Part shown: piece by piece, positions 2,369 through 34,320 of the stretch
Layout: each line of letters begins with the position of its first letter
Numbering within the stretch: the stretch's first letter is position 1
Origin: Pristiophorus japonicus
Taxonomy: Eukaryota
NCBI RefSeq assembly: GCF_044704955.1
Contig: NC_091985.1
Coordinates: 165,912,001-165,976,000 of the forward strand
DNA: 64,000 bases
Direction: 5' to 3'
Notes under the pieces: model-generated
Database searches by the model: none
What the model saw: only the letters and a program-made list of their open reading frames with translations
What the model was told of the DNA's origin: nothing
Program-made: the position numbers and the translations under genes

Positions 2369-4222
2369 AATTCTTTGAGGATGTAACGAACAGGGTGGAT
2401 AAAGGGGAACCAGTGGATATGGTGTATTTGGACTGCCAGAAGACATTTAACAAGGTGCCACATAAAAGGTCACTGCACAAGATAAAAGTTCACGGGGTTG
2501 AGGGTAATATATTAGCATGGATAGAGGATTGGCGAACGAACAGAAAACAGAGAATCGGGATAAATGGTTCATTCTCGGATTGGCAATCAGTAACCAGTGG
2601 GGTGTCACAGGGATCAGTGCTGGAACCCCAACTATTTACAATCTATATTAACGACTTGGAAGAAGGGACAGAGTGTAACGTAGCCAAGTTTGCTGACTAT
2701 GTATGTGTGAGGAGGACACATCTGCAAAAGGACATAAGACAGACTAAGTGAGTGGGCAAAAATTTGGCAGATGGAGTATAATGTTGGAACTTTGGCAGAA
2801 AAAAATCAAAGAGCAAGTTATTATTTAAATGGAGAAAGACTGCAAAGTGCTGCAGTACAGCAGGACCTGGGGGTACTTGTGCATGAAACACAAAAGGTTA
2901 CTCTTGTGTTCCTAACACAGATGAGGCTACACACAGGGAGGTTAAAGTAACAGTGACCTCAATCTTTAATAAGACACTCCAGAGTGAGGAACAGGCCTTA
3001 GGGGCTGGCTTATAAACAGTGCTCCCAAGGGATGCTGGGATCCCTTGGGACTTCAGGGGATGAGCTCCCTGGTGCGGAACATGGGAATGCATGCTTTACA
3101 GATACACAACAGTTAGTATGCAGGTACAGCAAGTAATTAGGAAGGCCAATGGAATCTTGGCCTTTATTACAAAGGGGATGGAGTATAAAAGCAGGGAAGT
3201 CTTGCTACAGCTATATAATGTATTATTGAGGCCACTGCGTGCAGTTTTGGTTTCCATATTTACGAAAGGATATACTTGCTTTGGAGGCAGTTCAGAGAAG
3301 GTTCACTAGGTTGATTTCGGGGATGAGGGGGTTGACTTATGAGGAAAGGTTGAGTAGGTTGGGCCTCTACTCATTGGAATGCAGAAGAATGAGAGGTGGT
3401 CTTATCGGAAGATATAAGATTATGAGGGAGCTTGACAAGGTGGATGCAGAGAGAATGTTTCCACTGTTGGGGGAGAATCGAACTAGAGGGCATTATCTTA
3501 GAATAAGGGGTCGGCTGTTTAAAACTGAGATGAGAAGGAATTTCTTCTCTCAGAGGGTTGTAAATCTGTGGAATTTGCTGCCTCAGAGAGATGTGGAAGC
3601 TGGGACATTGAATAAATTTAAGACAAAAATAGACAGTTTTTTTAATAAGGGGTTATGGGGAGCGTGCAGGGAAGTAGAGCTGAGTCCATAATCAGATCAG
3701 CCATGATCTTATTGAATATCGAGGGGCCGTATCTGTAGATTGAGTAGGCTGGGTCTTTACTCTTTGGAGTTCAGAAGGATGAGGGGTGATCTTATAGAAA
3801 CATTTAAAATAATGAAAGGGATAGACAAGATAGAGGCAGAGAGGTTGTTTCCACTGGTCGGGGAGACTAGAACTAGGGGGCACAGCCTCAAAATACGGAG
3901 GGGCCAATTTAAAACCGAGTTGAGAAGGAATTTCTTCTCCCAGAGGGTTGTGAATCTGTGGAATTCTCTGCCCAAGGAAGCAGTTGAGGCTAGCTCATTG
4001 AATGTATTCAAGTCACAGATTTTTAACCAATGAGGGAATTAAGGGTTACGGAGAGCGGGCGGGTAAGTGGAGCTGAGTCCACGGCCAGATCAGCCACTAT
4101 CTTGTTAAATGGCGGAGCAGGCTCGAGGGGCTAGATGGCCTACTCCTGTTCCTAATTCTTATGTTCTTATGTTCTTATGTATCGCCTACTCTTGTTCCTA
4201 TTTCTTATGTTCTTATGTTCTT
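2369..4222 (+). mobile_element. CR1 RT 3' fragment with a second CR1 3' end (3734-4178) nested in its tail
   Basis: RT peptides in ORFs 2395, 3091, 3239, 3740; two (TTCTTATG)n tails; GTATC duplicated at 3729-3733 / 4179-4183. Confidence 0.88.
2901..3111 (-). mobile_element. Solo LTR inserted in CR1
   Basis: Minus strand begins TGTTGTG and contains TTATAA and ATTAAA; GTTA duplicated at 2897-2900 / 3112-3115; the CR1 frame resumes after it. Confidence 0.8.
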
Positions 4223-8972: not shown

Positions 8973-9549
8973 TATCAGAGGCAGTCCCTCGGAATCGAGA
9001 AAGACTTGCTTCCACTCTCAGCATGAGTCCTTAGGTGGCTGAACAGTCCAATACAACTCTTTTGTAGTGAACAAATTAAACATTTAAATCGAGTGCACTC
9101 CAAACATTTTTCCAGGCCCTTTTTTTGTGTTTTTTGGGCTCTAAAACATAAATATATACAAGTGCCCCCTATAAAAGGGGAGGGGGACACTAAAACCGGC
9201 AATAAAACAAATTAAACTTTAAAACATATAAAATCAAATTAAAATTTGGTTGCCGGGGCAGTCCAATACAAGAACCACAGTCTCTGACACAGGTGGGACA
9301 GACAGTCATTGAGGAAAGGGGCGGGCAGGGAGCCTGGTTTGCCACACACTCCTTCCGCTGCCTGCGCTTGATTTCTGCATGCTCTCGGCGACGATACTCG
9401 AGGAGCTCAGCGCCCTCTCGGATGCACTTCCTCCACTTAGGGCGGTCTATGGCCAAGGACTCCCAGGTGTCAGTGGGGATGTCGCACTTTATCAGGGAGG
9501 CTTTGAGGGTATCCTTGTAACGTTTCCTCTGCCCATCTTTGGCTCGTTT
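8973..9549 (-). mobile_element. RTE 3' fragment (contains Tx1 insertion)
   Basis: GQRKRYKDTLKASLIKCDIPTDTWESLA..RPKWRK. Confidence 0.88.
9057..9258 (-). mobile_element. Tx1-clade 3' UTR fragment inserted in an RTE
   Basis: Same 3' UTR as 28466-28670 (gtgccccctataaaaggggagggggacac); 13-bp TSD CAGTCCAATACAA at 9044-9056 and 9259-9271. Confidence 0.85.
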
Positions 9550-24635: not shown

Positions 24636-27600
24636 GCGTGGAAACCGGATAGGAGGGATTCAAACATGGAATTGCAGCAAAGATGGGCACGGATTTAGGA
24701 GGCAACAAATCATTTAAGGACTTTGGAGAGGAAAGGGAGGTTGGAGATGGGGCAGTAGTTTACAAGGACAGAGGGATCGAGGTTTTTTTTGAGAGGGGTG
24801 ATGACAGCAGATTTGAGGGAGAGGGGGACAGTACCTGAGGAGAATGAACCATTAACAACATCAGCTAACATGGGAGCCAGAAAAGGAAGTTGGGTGGTCA
24901 GCAGTTTGGTGGGAATAGGGTCAAGGGAGCAGGAAGTGGGTCTCATGGACAGAATGAGCTCAGAAAAGTCATGAGGGGAGATTGGAGAGAAACTGGAGAA
25001 AGATGTGAAGTCAGGGCTAGGGCAAGGGGCTTCCTTAGGGGAAGTTTGGCCCGGTGGGCTAGGAGAAGGGAAGAGGCAGAGGCAGCCGAACGCATGGTCT
25101 CAATCATAGCGACGAAGAAGTCCATGAGCTCCTCACTTATTGTCGGAGGTGAGGGTGGAGACTGGGGAGAGGGGTTTAAAAATGATTCTGGAATAGTGAA
25201 CCATTTTGGCAGCAGAGAGCAGGACCCGATAGTGCTTTATGTGGTCCAGCCAGATCTGGCGGTGAATCACTAACCCAGTTGTCCGCCATATCCGTTTAAG
25301 TCTACATCCCTTGGACTTAAGGGAGCGAAGATCAGGGGGAATGGTCAGGGTGAGAGAGAGTAATTGTTTTAACAGGGTCTAGGGCATCAAAGGTGGTGGT
25401 GAGGGTGTGATTGAGCAGATCACTAGCTGCAGAAATGTCAGGGTGAATGGAGGGCCAAAGGCTGGACAGTTGGGAGTTGCTGTGCAGTTGTAAGAGAGTC
25501 GGGCAAGAGTTTGTTCCAGGGGCATGTAGGTTTGGGGGTTTGGAAGGGGGATGTGGGTGGAAAGTGATACGAGGAAGTGGTCAGATAAGGTCAGAGATGG
25601 CCTTATCTGCGATGGACACGATGGGAGTAGCGAGGCCACGAGACATGGCAAGGTCGAGGGGCTGGCCGTGAATATGATTGGGGAGATTAAGGATGAACTC
25701 AGAGCAGAGAGAACATGGTGAATTGAGATGGAGGTTGAAATCACCAAGAATGAGAAGTCGTTCTGTGCAGAGGCAAAGGGAGGAAAGTAGTGAAGAAATA
25801 TCGGTAATAAAATGTTTATGGTACTTGGGTGGGCGGTAGAGAACGGGAATTTCTCATCAATAAATCATCTACCTAGTGTCCTGAGACGTCACTCCTGTTT
25901 TTTTTGTTGTTTTAGCATTTGCCGGATTTGTACCGCCTCCTCTGGTGCCGACTCTGCTCAGGTCCGCGCTTCCTCTCATCCCACTCTATTTATGGTCTGC
26001 CAAGGGCCTCCTCCGGTGCTGACTCCGTTTAGGTCCTGGGATCGGTGGAGGCATACTGTCATTCAATGCAATGATATAAATCTCACCAAAATGCATTATT
26101 GTATGATTTACACATGGTGTCATTGTAATAAAAATTATACGTTTTTCTTCTGGTTCTTCCAAATAGAAAATAGCATTTGCAAAACACTATTTTTTCACGT
26201 TTTACTACGTCAAAGGCGCTATATAAATACAAGTTGTAGCTGTTAATATACTGCCCCTATACTTGAAAGATGCATTTCTATACAGTATTTAACCAGAGTT
26301 TACTAAGAACAGTCACAATTCTTTAAACACAGTGTTTGTTTCCCCTGGTTGGAGTGTCTAGAACTAGGGATCACAGTCGCAGGATAAGGGGAAGACCATT
26401 TATGACAGAGATGAGGAGGAATTTCTTTAGTCAGATGGTTGTGAATCTTTGGAATTCTCTGCCCAAAGGGCTGTGGATGCCGAGTCTCTGAATATATTCA
26501 CGGCTCAATGAACAAAATGTTGAATTATTGTGGGTGGAGATTAGAGATAGTAAGGGGAAAAAGTCACTGGTCGGCGTAGTTTATAGGCCCCCAAATAATA
26601 ACTTCATGGTGGGGCGGGCAATAATCAAGGGAATAATGGAGGCATGTGAAAAAGGAACGGCAGTAGTTATGGGGGATTTTAACCTACATATCGATTGGTC
26701 AAATCAAATCGCAGGGGGTAGCCTGGAGGAGGAATTCATAGAATGCATACGGGATTGTTTCTTAGAACAGTATGTAACAGAGCCTACAAGGGAGCAAGCC
26801 ATTTTGGATCTGGTCCTGTGTAACGAGACAGGAAAAATAAACGATCTCCTCGTAAAAGATCCTCTCGGAATGAGTGATCACAATATGGTTGAATTTGTAA
26901 TACAGATTGAGGATGAGGAAGTTGTGTCAGAAACGAGCGTACTATGCTTAAACAAAGGGGACTACAGTGGGATGAGGGCAGAGTTGGCTAAAGTAGACTG
27001 GAAACAAGGACTAAACGGTGGCACAATTGAGGAACAGTGGAGGACTTTTAAGGAGCTCTTTCATAATGCGCAACAAAAATATATTCCAGTGAAAAAGAAG
27101 GGCGGCAAGAGAAGAGATAACCAGCCGTGGATAACCAAGGAAATTAAGGTAAGTATCAAATCAAAGACCAATGCGTATAAGGTGGCCAAGGTTAGTGGGA
27201 AACTAGAGGATTGGGAATATTTTAAGCAACAGCAAAGAATGACTAAAAAAGCAATAAAGAAAAGGAAGATAGATTACGAAGGTAAACTTGCGCAAAACAT
27301 AAAAACAAATAGTAAAAGCTTTTACAGATATATAAAACGGAAAAGAGTGACTAAAGTAAATGTTGGTCCCTTAGAAGATGAAAAGGGGGATTTAATAATG
27401 GGAAATGTGGAAATGGCTGAGACCTTAAACAATTATTTTGCTTCCGTCTTCACAGTGGAAGACACAAAAACCATGCCAAAAATTGCTGGTCATAGGAATG
27501 TGGGAAGGGAGGACCTTGAGATGATCACTATCACTAGGGAGGTAGTGCTGGACAGACTAATGGGACTGAAGGTAGACAAGTCCCCTGGTCCTGATGAAAT

Positions 27601-28465
27601 GCATCCCAGGGTATTAAAAGAGATGGCGGAAGTTATAGCAGATGCATTTGTTATAATCTACCAAAATTCTCTGGACTCTGGGGAGGTACCAGCGGATTGG
27701 AGAGCAGCTAATGTAACGCCTCTGTTTAAAAAAGGGGGCAGGCAAAAGGCAGGTAACTATAGGCCGGTTAGTTTAACATCTGTAGTGGGGAAAATGCTTG
27801 AAACTATCATTAAGGAAGAAATAGCGGGAAATCTGGATAGGAATAGTGCAATCAAGCAGACGCAGCATGGATTCATGAAAGGGAAATCATGTTTAACTAA
27901 TTCACTGGAATTCTTTGAGGATATAACGAGCATGGTGGATAGAGGTGTACCGATGGATGTGGTGTATTTAGATTCCCAAAAGGCATTCGATAAGGTGCCA
28001 CACAAAAGGTTACTGCAGAAGATAAAGGTACGCGGAGTTAGAGGAAATGTATTAGCATGGATAGAGAATTGGCTGGCGAACAGAAAGCAGAGAGTCGGGA
28101 TAAATGGGTCCTTTTCCGGTTGGAAATCAGTGGTTAGTGGTGTGCCACAGGGATCAGTGCTGGGACCACAACTGTTTACAATATACATAGATGACCTAGA
28201 GGAGGGGACAGAGTGTAGTGCAACAAAATTTGCAGATGACACTAAGATTAGTGGGAAAGCGGGTTCTGTAGAGGGCTCAGAGAGGCTGCAAAGAGATTTA
28301 GATAGGTTAAGCGAATGGGCTAAGGTTTGGCAGATGGAATACAATGTCGGAAAGTGTGAGGTCATCCACCTTGGGAAAAAAAACAGTAAAAGGGAATATT
28401 ATTTGAATGGGGAGAAATTACAACATGCTGTGGTGCAAAGGGACCTGGGAGTCCTTGTGCATGAA

Positions 28466-28987
28466 ACTCTTTTTAGGAGAAAACAAAAAACATTAAACCG
28501 TGCCCCCCGATCTGGGGGAAACACCAACATTTACAAGGCCCTTTTTTTTTGGCACAGAATCAAATTTTTTCTCCAAGTGCCCCCTATAAAAGGGGAGGGG
28601 GACACTAAAAGCACCGGCAATTAAAACAAATTAACTTAAAAACATAAAATCAAATTAAAATTTGGTTGCCGGGCGTGATGATGCACTCCAGTTCCTCCGG
28701 TGCCCACCTCTCGTGGAAGGCCGCGAGCGTACCGGTGGACACCGCGTGCTCCATCTCCAAGGACACCCTGGACCGGATGTATGCGCGGAAGAGAGGCAGG
28801 CAGTCTGGTTGAACGACCCCCTCGACCGCCCGCTGCCTGGACCGGCTGATGGCACCCTTGGCCGTGCCCAGGAGCAGTCCTACGAGGAGGCCCTCGGACC
28901 TACCCGCTCCCCTCCGCACAGGGTGCCCGAAGATCAGGAGTGTGGGACTGAAGTGCAGCCAGAATTTCAGGAGCAGCCCCTTTAAAT
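28466..28987 (-). mobile_element. Tx1-clade LINE 3' fragment (ORF2 C-terminus + 3' UTR) inserted in CR1
   Basis: ORF 28650..28919 (LLVGLLLGTAKGAISRSRQRAVEG...FHERWAP) resembles the Tx1/L1 ORF2 C-terminus; TSD TCCTTGTGCATGAA at 28452-28465 and 28988-29001. Confidence 0.85.
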
Positions 28988-29028
28988 TCCTTGTGCATGA
29001 AACTCTTTTAGGGTTCCTTATGCATGAA

Positions 29029-29411
29029 ACTCTTTTTGGATTTTTAAATTTTTTTAAATTTTTTTTTTATTTTAAATTTTTCGTTGCCAATCTTTCCAAT
29101 TCTTTGTCAAATCACAAACGCCAGAGGTCACCTTGCACACATCAAGGATCACTCTGCGCCAATGCTCTTAGCCAAAAGGCCGAGAGCCACTGCACCGTTC
29201 CTGGAAATACTGCAATACCAGGTTCGTGCCATGGAGGTGGATGGGTCAGGCCCCCCACACACCTCCGTGGAGGTGGATGGGTCAAGCCACCCCACCCACC
29301 TCCTATTTCCAAAAAGCATAGGAGAACCACCTTCCTGATCCAGGGAGAACCACTTTGGGGTCATGGTTACTCCCCTGTCAGGTCAGTTACGCATGATCTT
29401 AGCCAAAAGGC
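29029..29411 (-). mobile_element. U2/U1 snRNA-derived chimeric retroposon (SINEU-like) with A-rich tail
   Basis: Minus strand reads, in order: U2 5' (GCCTTTTGGCTAAGATCA), U1 5' (AACTGACCTGACAGGGGAGTAACCATGAC...), U2 Sm/SLIII-like, U2 3' (ACCTGGTATTGCAGTATTTCCAGGAACGGTGCA), U2 5' again (TCTCGGCCTTTTGGCTAAGA), unique segment, then A-rich tail ending AAAAAGAGT. Confidence 0.85.
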
Positions 29412-30337
29412 AGGAATCCCAAAAGGTTAGTTTGCAGGTGCAGCAGGTAATCAGGAAGGCAAATGGAATGTTGGCCTTCATTGCGAAAGGGATGGAGTAC
29501 AAAAGCAGGGAGGTGTTGCTGCAACTGTATAAGGTATTGGTAAGGCCGCACCTGGAGTACTGCGTGCAGTTTTGGTCACCTTACTTATGGAAGGATATAC
29601 TAGCTTTGGAAGGGGTACAGAGACGATTCACTAGGCTGATTCGAGAAATGAGGGGGTTACCTTATGATGATAGATTGAGTAGACTGGGTCTTTACTCCTT
29701 GGAGTTCAGAAGGATGAGGGGTGATCTTATAGAAACATTTAAAATCATGAAAGGGATAGACAAGATAGAGGCAGAGAGGTTGTTTCCATTGGTGGGGGAG
29801 ACTAGAACTAGGGGTCACAGCCTCAAAATACGGAGGAGCCAATTTAAAATCGAGTTGAGAAAGAATTTCTTCTCCCAGAGGGTTGTGAATCTGTGGAATT
29901 TTCTGTCCAAGGAAGCAGTTGAGGCTAGCTCATTGAATGTTTTCAAGTCAAAGATAGATAGATTTTTAAGCAATAAGGGAATTAAGGGTTACAGGGAGAG
30001 GGCGGGTAAGTGGAGCTGAGTCCACGACCAGATCAGCCACGATCTTATTGAATGGCGGAGCAGGCTCGAGGGGCTAGATGGCCTACTCCTGTTCCTAATT
30101 CTTATGTTCTTATGTTCTCAGATAGATAAAACTCAGAGTTTTTGAGTCTAGGGAAATCAAGGGATATGGGGATCGGGCGTGAAAATGGAGTTGAGGTCGA
30201 TGATCAGCTATGATCTTCTTGAAGGGCGGAGCAGGCTCGAGGGGCCATTGGGCCTACTCCTGCTCCTATTTCTTATCGAACTGTCATGACATTTCAATGA
30301 AATGCCGATATGTTACGCAGAAGGAAGAAAAGACATA

Positions 30338-31464: not shown

Positions 31465-32620
31465 ACAGAATCATAAAAATTTACAGCACAGAAGGAGGCC
31501 ATTTCGGCCCATCGTGTCCGTGCCGGCCAACCAAGAGCTATCCAGCCTAATCCCTCTCTCCAGCTCTTGGTCCATAGCCCTGTAGGTTACAGCACTTTAA
31601 GTGCACATCCAAGTATTTTTTAAATGTGGTGAGTGTTTCTGCCTCGACAACCCTTTCAGGCAGTTTGTTCCAGACCCCCACCACCCTCTGGGTGAAGAAA
31701 CTTCCCCTCATATCTCCTCTATACCTCCCCCAATAACTTTAAATCTATGCCCCCTGGTTGTTGACCCCTCTGTCAAGGGAAACGGGTCCTTCCTATCCAC
31801 TCTATCCAGGCCCCTCATAATTTTATACCCCTCAATCAGGCCACCCCTCAGCCTCCTTTGTTCCAAAGAAAACAGACCCAGTATCTCCAATCTTTCCTCA
31901 TAGCCAAAGTTCTGCAGTCCAGGCAACATTCTTGTAAATCTCCTCTGCACCCTCTCCATCTTTCCTGTAATGTGGTGACGAGAACTGCACGCAATGCGCC
32001 AGCTGCGGCCTAACCAGTGTTTTATACAGTTCAAGTAAAACCTCCTTGCTTTTGTATTCCATGCTTCGACTTATAAAGGCACATATTCCATATGCCTTCT
32101 TAACCACCTTATCTACCTGGCCTGCTACCTTCAGGGATCTGTGGACCTGCACTCCAAGGTCCCTTTGTTCCTCTACACTTTTCAGGGTTGTACCATTTAC
32201 TGTGTACTCCCTTGCCTTGTTAGACGTCCCCAAATGCATTACCTCACACTTATCCGGATTGAATTCCATTTGCCACTGTTCTGCCCACCTGACCAGTACA
32301 TTGATATCTTCCTGCAGTCCGCAGCTTTCTTTTTCATTATCAACCACACAGCCTATTTCAGTGTCATCTGAAAACTTCTTAATCATACCCCCAACATTCA
32401 AGTCTAAGTCATTGATATATACCACAAAAAGAAAGGGGCCAGCACTGAGCCCTGTGGAACCCCACTGGATACAGCCTTCCAGTCACAAAAACACCCATCA
32501 ACCATTACCCTTTGCTTCCTGCCTCTGACTCAATTTTGGATACAACTTGCCACTTTGCCTTGGATCCCATGGGCTTTTACTTTTGTGACCAGTCTGCCAT
32601 GTGGGACTTTATCAAGGCCT
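31465..32620 (-). mobile_element. CR1 RT 3' fragment
   Basis: ORFs 31708 and 31898 (YINDLD, FSDD, YKTLVRPQL). Confidence 0.88.
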
Positions 32621-33760
32621 TGAGCGCGCCAGCGGACACCGTCTGCTCCATCCCCAGGGACACCCGGACGCGAACTTTGCCGTCGAAGAGAGCGAGGCGG
32701 TCGGGCCGAATGACCCCCTTCGACAGTCGGAACGACCCCCTTCGATGACCCCCTTCGACCGGCCCCAACGACCCCCTTCGACTGGCCCGAACTTTGACCG
32801 GCCCGAACTTCGACCGGCCCGAACTTCGACTGGCCCGAACTTCGACCGGCCCGAACGACCCCCTTCGACCGGCCCGAACTTCGACCGGCCCGAACTTCGA
32901 CCGGCCCGAACGACCCCCTTCGACCGGCCTGAACTTCGACCGGCCCGAACTTCGACCGGCCCGAACGACCCCCTTCGACCGGCCTGAACTTCGACTGGCC
33001 CGAACGACCCCCTTCGACCGGCCCGAACTTCGACCGGCCCGAACGACCCCCTTCGACCGGCCTGAACTTCGACCGGCCCGAACTTCGACCGGCCCGAACG
33101 ACCCCCTTCGACCGGCCTGAACTTCGACTGGCCCGAACGACCCCCTTCGACCGGCCCGAACTTCGACCGGCCCGAACGACCCCCTTCGACCGGCCTGAAC
33201 TTCGACTGGCCCGAACGACCCCCTTCGACCGGCCTGAACTTCGACTGGCCCGAACGACCCCCTTCGACCGGCCTGAACTTCGACTGGCCCGAACAACCCC
33301 CTTCGACCGGCCTGAACTTCGACCGGCCTGAACTTCGACCGGCCTGAACAACCCCCTTCGACCAGCCTGAACTTCGACCAGCCTGAACTTCGACCGGCCT
33401 GAACAACCCCCTTCAACCGGCCTGAACTTCGACCGGCCCGAACAACCCCCTTCGACCGGCCTGAACTTCGACCGGCCCGAGCTTCGACCAGCCTGAACTT
33501 CGACCGGCCCGAACAACCCCCTTCGACCGGCCTGAACTTCGACCGGCCCGAACAACTCCCTTCGACCAGCCTGAACTTCGACCGGCCCGAACGACCCCCT
33601 TCGACCGGCCCGAACAACCCCCTTCGACCGGCCCGAACAACCCCCTTCGACCAGCCTGAACGATCCCCTTCGACCGGCGACGGTCCGAACGGCCCCCTTC
33701 GACTGGCCCGCTGCCTGCGACCTGTTGAGGGCCACTTTTGCCGGACCCAGGGCAGTTGGT
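32621..33760 (-). mobile_element. Tx1-clade LINE ORF2 C-terminal remnant hosting the minisatellite
   Basis: Left flank encodes GVIRPDRLALFDGKVRVRVSLGMEQTVSAGAL, matching GVVQPDCLPLFRAYIRSRVSLEMEHAVSTGTL at 28650..28919. The right flank (ggcccgctgcctgcgacctgttgagggccacttttgccggacccagggcag) aligns to 28828-28878. Confidence 0.8.
32707..33710. repeat. CpG-rich composite minisatellite (16-bp CGACCGGCCCGAACTT and 23-bp CGACCGGCCCGAACGACCCCCTT units)
   Basis: Directly visible tandem units with C/T and G/A variants; explains the overlapping repetitive ORFs 32530-34403. Confidence 0.95.
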
Positions 33761-33779: not shown

Positions 33780-34320
33780 TGTGATTGGACAGCCAAGCAG
33801 GTGGCGGTTGTCAATGGAAAACCGAAGTACGCGCCATTTGGCGCGCGCGCACAATGACGTCGCCACGCCGCCGACGCTCAAAACCCGAGGCACGCAAAAC
33901 TGCACGTCGCCGCGTCGGTGTTTGGCGGAGGCAGCACGCGCGTGCGCCGTGACCTTTCCCCCCTCTCTCCCACTGCGTGCTGGCGGCCCGGGCAAAGGGA
34001 GCGAGAGGCGATGGCGAGCTCGGGGAGGAAGCGCATGCTGAAGGATGAGGACATCTCCAAGGTGGAGTTCGAGACCAGCGAGGAGGTGGACGTCACCCCC
34101 ACCTTCGACACCATGGGGCTGCGGGAGGACCTGCTGCGGGGCATCTACGCGTACGGTGAGTGCGGGCCGGCCCGGGCCTAGATAGAAAGGAGGCCTCCCG
34201 CTCTCGCCGGCCGCTCCTCCGCTGGGCGCACGCCGGGGGCTGGCGGCCCGAGGGTGCCGAGGAGAGGGGGAAACAGGGGAGTTGAAAGCCGGGGCTCCCG
34301 GCCTGTACCTGGCGCCGTCA
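33780..34320 (+). promoter_or_regulatory. eIF4A3 CpG-island promoter / 5' region
   Basis: High CpG density; inverted CCAAT (ATTGG 33784), YY1-like CGCCATTT (~33832), CRE-like TGACGTCG (33855), GCGC runs; no obvious TATA box. Confidence 0.75.
34011..34155 (+). CDS. EIF4A3: eIF4A3 exon 1 ([10 protein letters not shown]...RGIYAY-G)
   Basis: ATG in gcgATGG context; donor G|gtgagt. Confidence 0.96.

Follow-up and report, generated by a model that had tools for sequence, protein, structure and literature searches.

What could bring three retroposed inserts to one and the same nucleotide of a LINE? In the window, by which the whole analysed stretch of 64,000 nucleotides is meant, a host CR1-type LINE is interrupted at 28465/29417, without loss of its reading frame, by three inserts that lie on the same strand and have target-site duplications between them. 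The inserts are a 3' fragment of a Tx1 element (522 bp), a stub (13 bp) and a mosaic of U2 and U1 pieces (383 bp), all on the minus strand. It is probable, though by no means strongly so, that a single nick was used three times over by loosely site-preferring Tx1 machinery, which also carried the mosaic as a SINE.

Architecture of the Interrupted LINE

The host is a LINE which we take to be CR1 from its motifs (KFADDTKI and the (TTCTTATG)n tail), the label not being drawn from a TE library. Its frame is open for 100 codons on either side of the inserts and resumes in frame at 29417 (...LGVLVHE / SQKVSLQ...). The target, a 14-mer, is found before each insert (Table 1), and each of its three copies is directly followed by ACTCTTTT. 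A 13-base core of this target has four matches in the window at no more than one mismatch, three at the stack and one at 2875; the shuffled window gave a mean of 0.09 core matches, and four were reached in none of 100 shuffles.

Where the host resumes, public contigs that represent empty CR1 sites begin to align at 29410 and carry CR1 sequence ahead of that point (as loose ends, in 4 of 4 runs), so the GCAGGAA found there is in register with the target. Since its first two bases are common to the remnant and the U2 piece, the remnant can be read as a duplication of either 7 bp, with one mismatch, or 3 bp. The duplication that goes with the mosaic is thus short and inexact, and the duplications at the stack measure 14, 14 and 7 bp. 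An earlier note on this DNA had reported the target copies with ACTCTTTT behind each, three inserts of one orientation at one nucleotide, and a remnant GCA(G)GAA where CR1 resumes; motif matching and shuffles, the insert boundaries within the in-frame host, and the empty-site contigs confirm these observations in turn. The stack is known from the window assembly, as no listed public contig runs across all of it; the best run, X1, possibly comes from the source sample.

Table 1. Positions of the features at the interrupted LINE and at a second Tx1 locus in the window
Feature	Position	Strand	Basis
Host CR1-type LINE, ORF2 upstream of the insertion point	26552..28465 (start approximate)	+	66.8% alignment to another window copy from 26552; open frame, KFADDTKI
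Target-site copy 1, 14 bp (TCCTTGTGCATGAA)	28452..28465	+	Motif match
5'-truncated Tx1L-lineage LINE, ends AAAAGAGT, without poly(A)	28466..28987	-	ORF, profile, tree, contigs
Target-site copy 2, 14 bp, identical to copy 1	28988..29001	+	
13-bp stub, terminus same as that of the Tx1 insert	29002..29014	-	
Target-site copy 3, 14 bp, one mismatch	29015..29028	+	
Mosaic tail, 54 nt, 69% A, last 11 nt equal to the majority Tx1 end	29029..29082	-	
Mosaic body, 83 bp, not snRNA-derived, multicopy	29083..29165	-	Without credible Rfam match; contig depth
Internal U2 5' piece, model positions 7-26, 20/20 identical to the Rfam consensus	29166..29185	-	
U2 3' half (Sm-site region, last two stems)	29186..29316	-	U2 E 2e-5; fold z -3.56
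36-bp tandem duplication within the U2 3' half	29232-29303	-	TRF
Two U1 5' pieces	29321..29389 (29341-29389 and partial repeat 29321-29340)	-	U1 E 0.0027
U2 5' head piece	29394..29411	-	Rfam U2 match
Remnant target duplication, GCAGGAA	29410..29416	+	
Host LINE resumes in frame, ends (TTCTTATG)n	29417..30118	+	Frame, tandem-repeat finding
Second Tx1 3' UTR copy, in a different LINE	9057..9258	-	Duplication 9044-9056 / 9259-9271

At the distal edge, CCAAAAGG is read both in the mosaic's U2 head (29403-29410) and, two bases away from the nick, in the CR1 flank (29419-29426). In reverse complement this flank is likewise similar to the Tx1 terminus, and the sharing of CCAAAAGG is absent at the second Tx1 target. 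The likeness of U2 head and CR1 flank may be either chance or a help in joining.

The Tx1 Insert and Its Lineage

The Tx1 insert comprises the last 111 codons of ORF2 (28653-28985, stop at 28650-28652) and a 3' UTR without poly(A). Family contigs extend past 28987 in all three listed runs, with a loose end there; the copy is therefore 5'-truncated at 28987, and the T at that position is element-derived. Eight longer protein matches to the fragment were found, of which three bear a species name, all of them pieces inside Pristis pectinata and Pristiophorus japonicus proteins (54-76%); a further match is from Heterodontus francisci. Against Swiss-Prot, a profile of 12 sequences matched Xenopus Tx1 ORF2 (YTX2_XENLA) with E 1.8e-26, the alignment covering 90% of the query at 42% identity.

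A midpoint-rooted tree was made from the last 250 residues of 32 proteins selected from those fetched, in which the window fragment, at 111 residues, fills 43% of the kept columns and holds neither RT nor endonuclease. The fragment falls in a 7-row group of close relatives (support 100/99), and a 13-row clade with the same support (100/99) unites it with Xenopus Tx1L and with sturgeon and sea-turtle sequences; neither an alligator Tx1 cluster nor teleost Tx1 belongs to it. The ORF2 C-terminus, as predicted from the DNA, thus groups with Xenopus Tx1L, and the membership in the Tx1 clade that had been proposed for this fragment is supported by profile search and tree, for the C-terminus.

A Pfam search of the window fragment gave no match. 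Weak RVT_1 and zf-RVT matches, below cut-off, were obtained with P0180, a 68% relative, and the full layout of APE endonuclease, RT and C-terminal zinc motif was seen only in more distant relatives; a search for longer relatives with P0002 found none. The Tx1 3' UTR motif had 0 matches in viral, metagenome and prokaryote contigs. A protein-profile scan yielded one metagenome locus (L001) from 41 candidates, which was rejected as chance at 23 matched residues.

Several observations on Tx1 elsewhere were made alongside. Run X9, which has another organism label (10 records), contains a contig 97.7% identical to window positions 28598-28987 (9 differences and 1 gap in 391), being either trace shark DNA or a transferred copy. 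Tx1 ORF2 pieces lie inside annotated shark, ray and alligator proteins (P0005, P0007, P0008, P0022, P0078 and P0162), and an alligator Tx1 ORF2 of 1308 residues is annotated as 'rhombotin-1'. An older Tx1 ORF2 piece at 32611-32727, with a weak continuation at 33687-33756, abuts a truncated CR1; a minisatellite of about 950 bp (16/23/39-bp units) has apparently grown inside it (32611-33756). This piece lies about 300 bp upstream of the start codon of eIF4A3/DDX48, whose first coding exon (34011-34157, plus strand, E 7.7e-22) occupies a GC-rich stretch about 4.6 kb from the stack.

The U1/U2 Mosaic as a Repeated Element

Read 5' to 3', the mosaic consists of a U2 5' piece, two U1 5' pieces, the U2 3' half, a second U2 5' piece, a body and a tail. 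Both U2 5' pieces end before the branch-point pairing region of the U2 consensus, at about positions 26-29. The U1 and U2 matches are below the Rfam gathering scores, as expected for pieces, and the second U1 piece was assigned by eye against the Rfam consensus. Other Rfam matches (Prion_pknot, mir-202, U6, ST7-AS2 and LSU_trypano_mito) were below cut-off and rejected as compositional.

No second mosaic copy was found within the 64-kb window. Evidence on its abundance comes from contigs of 4 of the 16 listed public runs (X1, X5, X8 and X9). In X1, all nine mosaic bins (29064-29405) have summed depths of 3.2e5-1.1e6, the body bins (29102-29177) reaching 7.0e5 and 9.1e5; the adjacent tail bin stands at 20.6 and the listed single contigs at depths of 11-34. 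Run X5, from another sample and study, likewise covers all nine bins, with 1.3e4 and 1.1e4 in the body. Summed depth is not copy number, and after allowing for 31-fold overlap the mosaic is estimated at some hundreds of copies. Furthermore, diverged contigs cross internal junctions of the mosaic: one in X5 spans 29086-29201 (10 differences, depth 40), and one in X8, a run with another organism label, spans 29294-29386 (7 differences, depth 181). X8 is without coverage of the body and X9 without any mosaic bin, coverage holes that prove nothing.

The depth over the nine bins together with the junction-crossing contigs argues for a repeat family, and not for a one-off chimera or the signal of real snRNA genes. 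The suggestion that the mosaic is a repeated snRNA-derived element therefore holds, being multicopy including its non-snRNA body, with the full mosaic seen in the window copy alone. The size, at 383 bp, is below the 500 bp of SINEU elements, and the head is U1- and U2-derived as theirs is. Because the mosaic including the body is a multicopy family, it is a SINEU-like retroposon, in what is probably, to go by the protein matches, a cartilaginous fish.

The Common Terminus and the Stub

At 28475 and 28480 the public contigs carry another letter than the window (90% and 87% of X1 depth, 81% and 79% of X5), and the majority Tx1 end is the same as the last 11 bases of the mosaic (29029-29039), at an anchored chance of about 3e-7 for one mosaic copy. 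The A-rich 29033-29083 was left out of the contig comparison as repeat, and the mosaic 3' end is known from one copy. Since one such end is seen, the 11 nt may come from a template switch from Tx1 RNA at this locus. In this copy an A-rich tail is capped by the Tx1 terminus, as against the poly(A) of SINEU. A conserved 3' hairpin was sought in the three ends and none was found (z -0.91, -0.74 and -0.71).

The stub concerns a 27-bp repeat whose units match at 24 of 27 positions and both start with T, including the Tx1-derived T at 28987. The similarity starts no more than one base from the duplication edge, as insertion predicts, and the stub resembles the end of Tx1 copy 1. Under a rough model, in which rates were assumed and priors left out, insertion comes out ahead of slippage 9-38-fold, and 125-500-fold once phase is counted. 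As the origin of the stub, an abortive insertion is more probable than slippage.

Target Preference

The Tx1 3' UTR occurs in the window a second time (E 2e-16), again ending in AAAAGAG and flanked by a 13-bp duplication without mismatch. This copy lies in another LINE, presumably of RTE type from its C-terminal peptide, and the two Tx1 targets share little beyond AA before the nick. There are 17 CTCTTTT sites in the window, and outside the stack a convincing flanking duplication was seen only at 9057. Six other CR1 copies in the window span the site, with the left flank found, and a Tx1 or mosaic insert is present in none of the six: five are contiguous and diverged at the site, and one (2879) has the same GTGCATGAA and is empty. 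Mosaic and Tx1 at the same base were seen at one locus.

The earlier note had further proposed that a Tx1 endonuclease prefers this CR1 motif. This is unsupported, as the one other copy of this Tx1 family in the window sits in a different LINE at a dissimilar site, and it is also spoken against by the other CR1 copies, all unoccupied and only one with the same motif. Strict CR1 specificity is contradicted; a partial preference is possible. For a Tx1 family to count as target-specific, Kojima (2015) set a threshold of more than 20% of flanks in one repeat type, to be read here against 2 loci in 2 hosts. In the whale shark, 21.8% of the genome is CR1 according to PMC8455134, and because of this abundance an insertion in CR1 is weak evidence for targeting. 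A target in register with the U2 site of Keno was also considered and rejected, both observed targets being LINE sequence.

Among the other CR1 copies, a 211-bp insert at 2901-3111, with a GTTA duplication and solo-LTR-like by eye, lies 13 bases from GTGCATGAA. The CR1 3' ends at 29671-30118 and 3736-4175 are 93% identical, and four further copies (at about 12.4, 21.7, 40.8 and 58-59.5 kb) are 95-97% alike and form a young family.

Proposed Mechanism and Alternatives

From TPRT, an established mechanism, we infer nick-primed copying at this locus, along with trans-mobilisation of the mosaic by this Tx1 and a part played by the terminus that both have in common. The LINE at work, abundant, of Tx1L lineage and without poly(A) tail, would nick the plus strand after ...GCATGAA, and the nicked end would prime the copying of an RNA that ends in AAAAGAGU. 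The other strand would be cut up to 14 nt away, duplicating the site, so that each insertion would regenerate the target site. Three products of one nick would be the near-complete U1/U2-derived SINE, the 13-nt abortive product and the 522-bp truncated Tx1, with the mosaic 5' end joined at a 2-nt overlap that would leave its short duplication. The preference of the enzyme would be loose and not confined to CR1. Repeated TPRT-type events at one nick, as had been put forward, are supported by the single strand, the single base and the series of duplications, and a Tx1 partner for the mosaic is likely.

A strong form of CR1 targeting, with most Tx1 and SINE copies at this position of CR1 ORF2 much as SINEU-3 is in Mariner-N4, is unlikely. 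It would explain three events at one base, and Tx1L, the closest named relative, has one target site in another transposon; in addition, X1 contains joints at 28470-29417 (depth 330), 28471-29417 (210) and 29009-29416 with GG between (220), which might be very short stubs at the corresponding position of further CR1 copies, but their sides are below 30 at 85% likeness, and joints of that kind are often repeat-derived. An off-target copy would fit a partial preference of the order reported for SINEU-1 (23%) and SINEU-2 (13%) in PMC4494074. However, one of two independent Tx1 loci is outside CR1, the other motif-bearing CR1 is empty, and the abundance of CR1 in the whale shark given above makes landing in this LINE a weak argument for targeting. 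It is quite unlikely, too, that fewer events took place, the stub being a 27-bp slippage and/or the 11-nt end of the mosaic a one-off Tx1-RNA switch onto an A-tailed SINE RNA, in which case there would be no family-wide terminus. The near-identity of the 27-bp units down to the Tx1-derived T would agree with this, as would the crocodilian SINEU, all poly(A)-tailed and none sharing a LINE 3' end in the account of PMC4494074; but the start of the repeat at the duplication edge, the model and the resemblance of the stub to Tx1 copy 1 favour insertion, and a template switch would still require Tx1 machinery at the same nick.

Carriage of the mosaic by the more abundant CR1, L2 or RTE machinery, followed by an independent arrival of Tx1 at the same base, is very improbable. 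Those LINEs are abundant in the window and the mosaic duplication differs in length from that of Tx1, yet the mosaic ends in the Tx1 terminus and not in the host (TTCTTATG)n tail, and stands antisense at the same base. An assembly artefact, in which the 14-bp motif brought together reads from separate copies of a repeat, is hardly credible: although no listed piece spans the stretch and X5 depth falls to 1.34 in bin 28988-29025, the units are non-identical, the host frame continues from one flank into the other, and coverage in X1 extends to all 30 bins.

Repeated use of one nick by loosely site-preferring Tx1 machinery is thus the reading retained here. An extended version holds that the U1/U2 SINE arose independently of crocodilian SINEU, has the non-poly(A) terminus of its partner Tx1 family-wide as a priming or recognition signal, and is enriched with that partner at a fixed position of CR1 ORF2, so that the two would form a LINE/SINE pair aimed at another LINE; this we regard as doubtful. 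If true, the shared terminal signal would be a direct handle on the choice of RNA by Tx1 proteins, and enrichment in CR1, which is the most common repeat of sharks, would place a LINE among the safe-haven targets of Tx1. Without shared terminus and CR1 enrichment, the locus would be a new-lineage record of a known kind of element. An abundant family of this kind in a shark-like genome, with little divergence from the majority sequence, would mean that the pairing of snRNA SINE and Tx1 recurs in vertebrates.

Comparison with Known Systems

In a literature search, no SINEU-like family was found in cartilaginous fish; Repbase, Dfam and subscription journals were outside its scope, so an existing entry is possible. 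As far as consulted, PMC5786205, PMC4758252 and PMC5381603 treat the crocodilian case only, and preprint 10.64898/2026.06.26.733778 makes no mention of Tx1 or snRNA.

Keno, of the Tx1 clade, and Utopia insert before U2 nucleotide 39, so that the 3' flank is U2 from nucleotide 39 (PMC4640811, in part). As at the window locus, U2 sequence then stands beside a non-LTR element, but the target of Keno and Utopia is the U2 gene, whereas here the U2 pieces are inside the mobile unit and neither observed target is a U2 gene entered before nucleotide 39. Tx1L has a highly specific endonuclease and is site-specific in Tx1D, as described in sections of PMC1950540. The window Tx1 resembles it in the 42% identical ORF2 C-terminus, in clade and in inserting in another mobile element; however, Tx1L has one site in Tx1D, and the window family has two dissimilar sites within 64 kb.

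The SINEU-1, -2 and -3 families and Tx1-Mar of crocodilians have shared targets, stacked U1/U2 pieces and tandem copies around a duplication (Kojima 2015, PMC4494074). As far as the consulted sections of that paper go, no SINEU was found outside crocodilians, all are poly(A)-tailed, and no LINE has the same 3' end; their link to Tx1 is made by shared targets and shared U1/U2 heads, and their transcription is an open question. The alligator Tx1 cluster outside the clade of the window element may or may not be Tx1-Mar. SINEU targets are Mariner elements whereas the window hosts of mosaic and Tx1 are LINEs, the poly(A) tail differs from the A-rich tail capped by a Tx1 end (in one copy), and SINEU are crocodilian whereas the window mosaic lies in a shark-like genome. 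Like the mosaic, SINEU-1C/H have a non-snRNA body preceded by stacked, partly duplicated U1/U2 pieces, SINEU-3 has U2 pieces that omit the middle of U2, and SINEU in general are shorter than 500 bp, inserted in another transposon with Tx1, and found in tandem copies sandwiching a duplication. The parallel that the earlier note drew with these elements is real on the published description (PMC4494074), and the crocodilian SINEU/Tx1-Mar may be taken as a close precedent, stacked copies included. In conclusion, the stack is real and works like SINEU/Tx1-Mar in a new lineage; compared with that system, the novelty lies in the lineage and, provided that it holds for the whole family, in a terminus other than poly(A) that the SINE has in common with its partner LINE.
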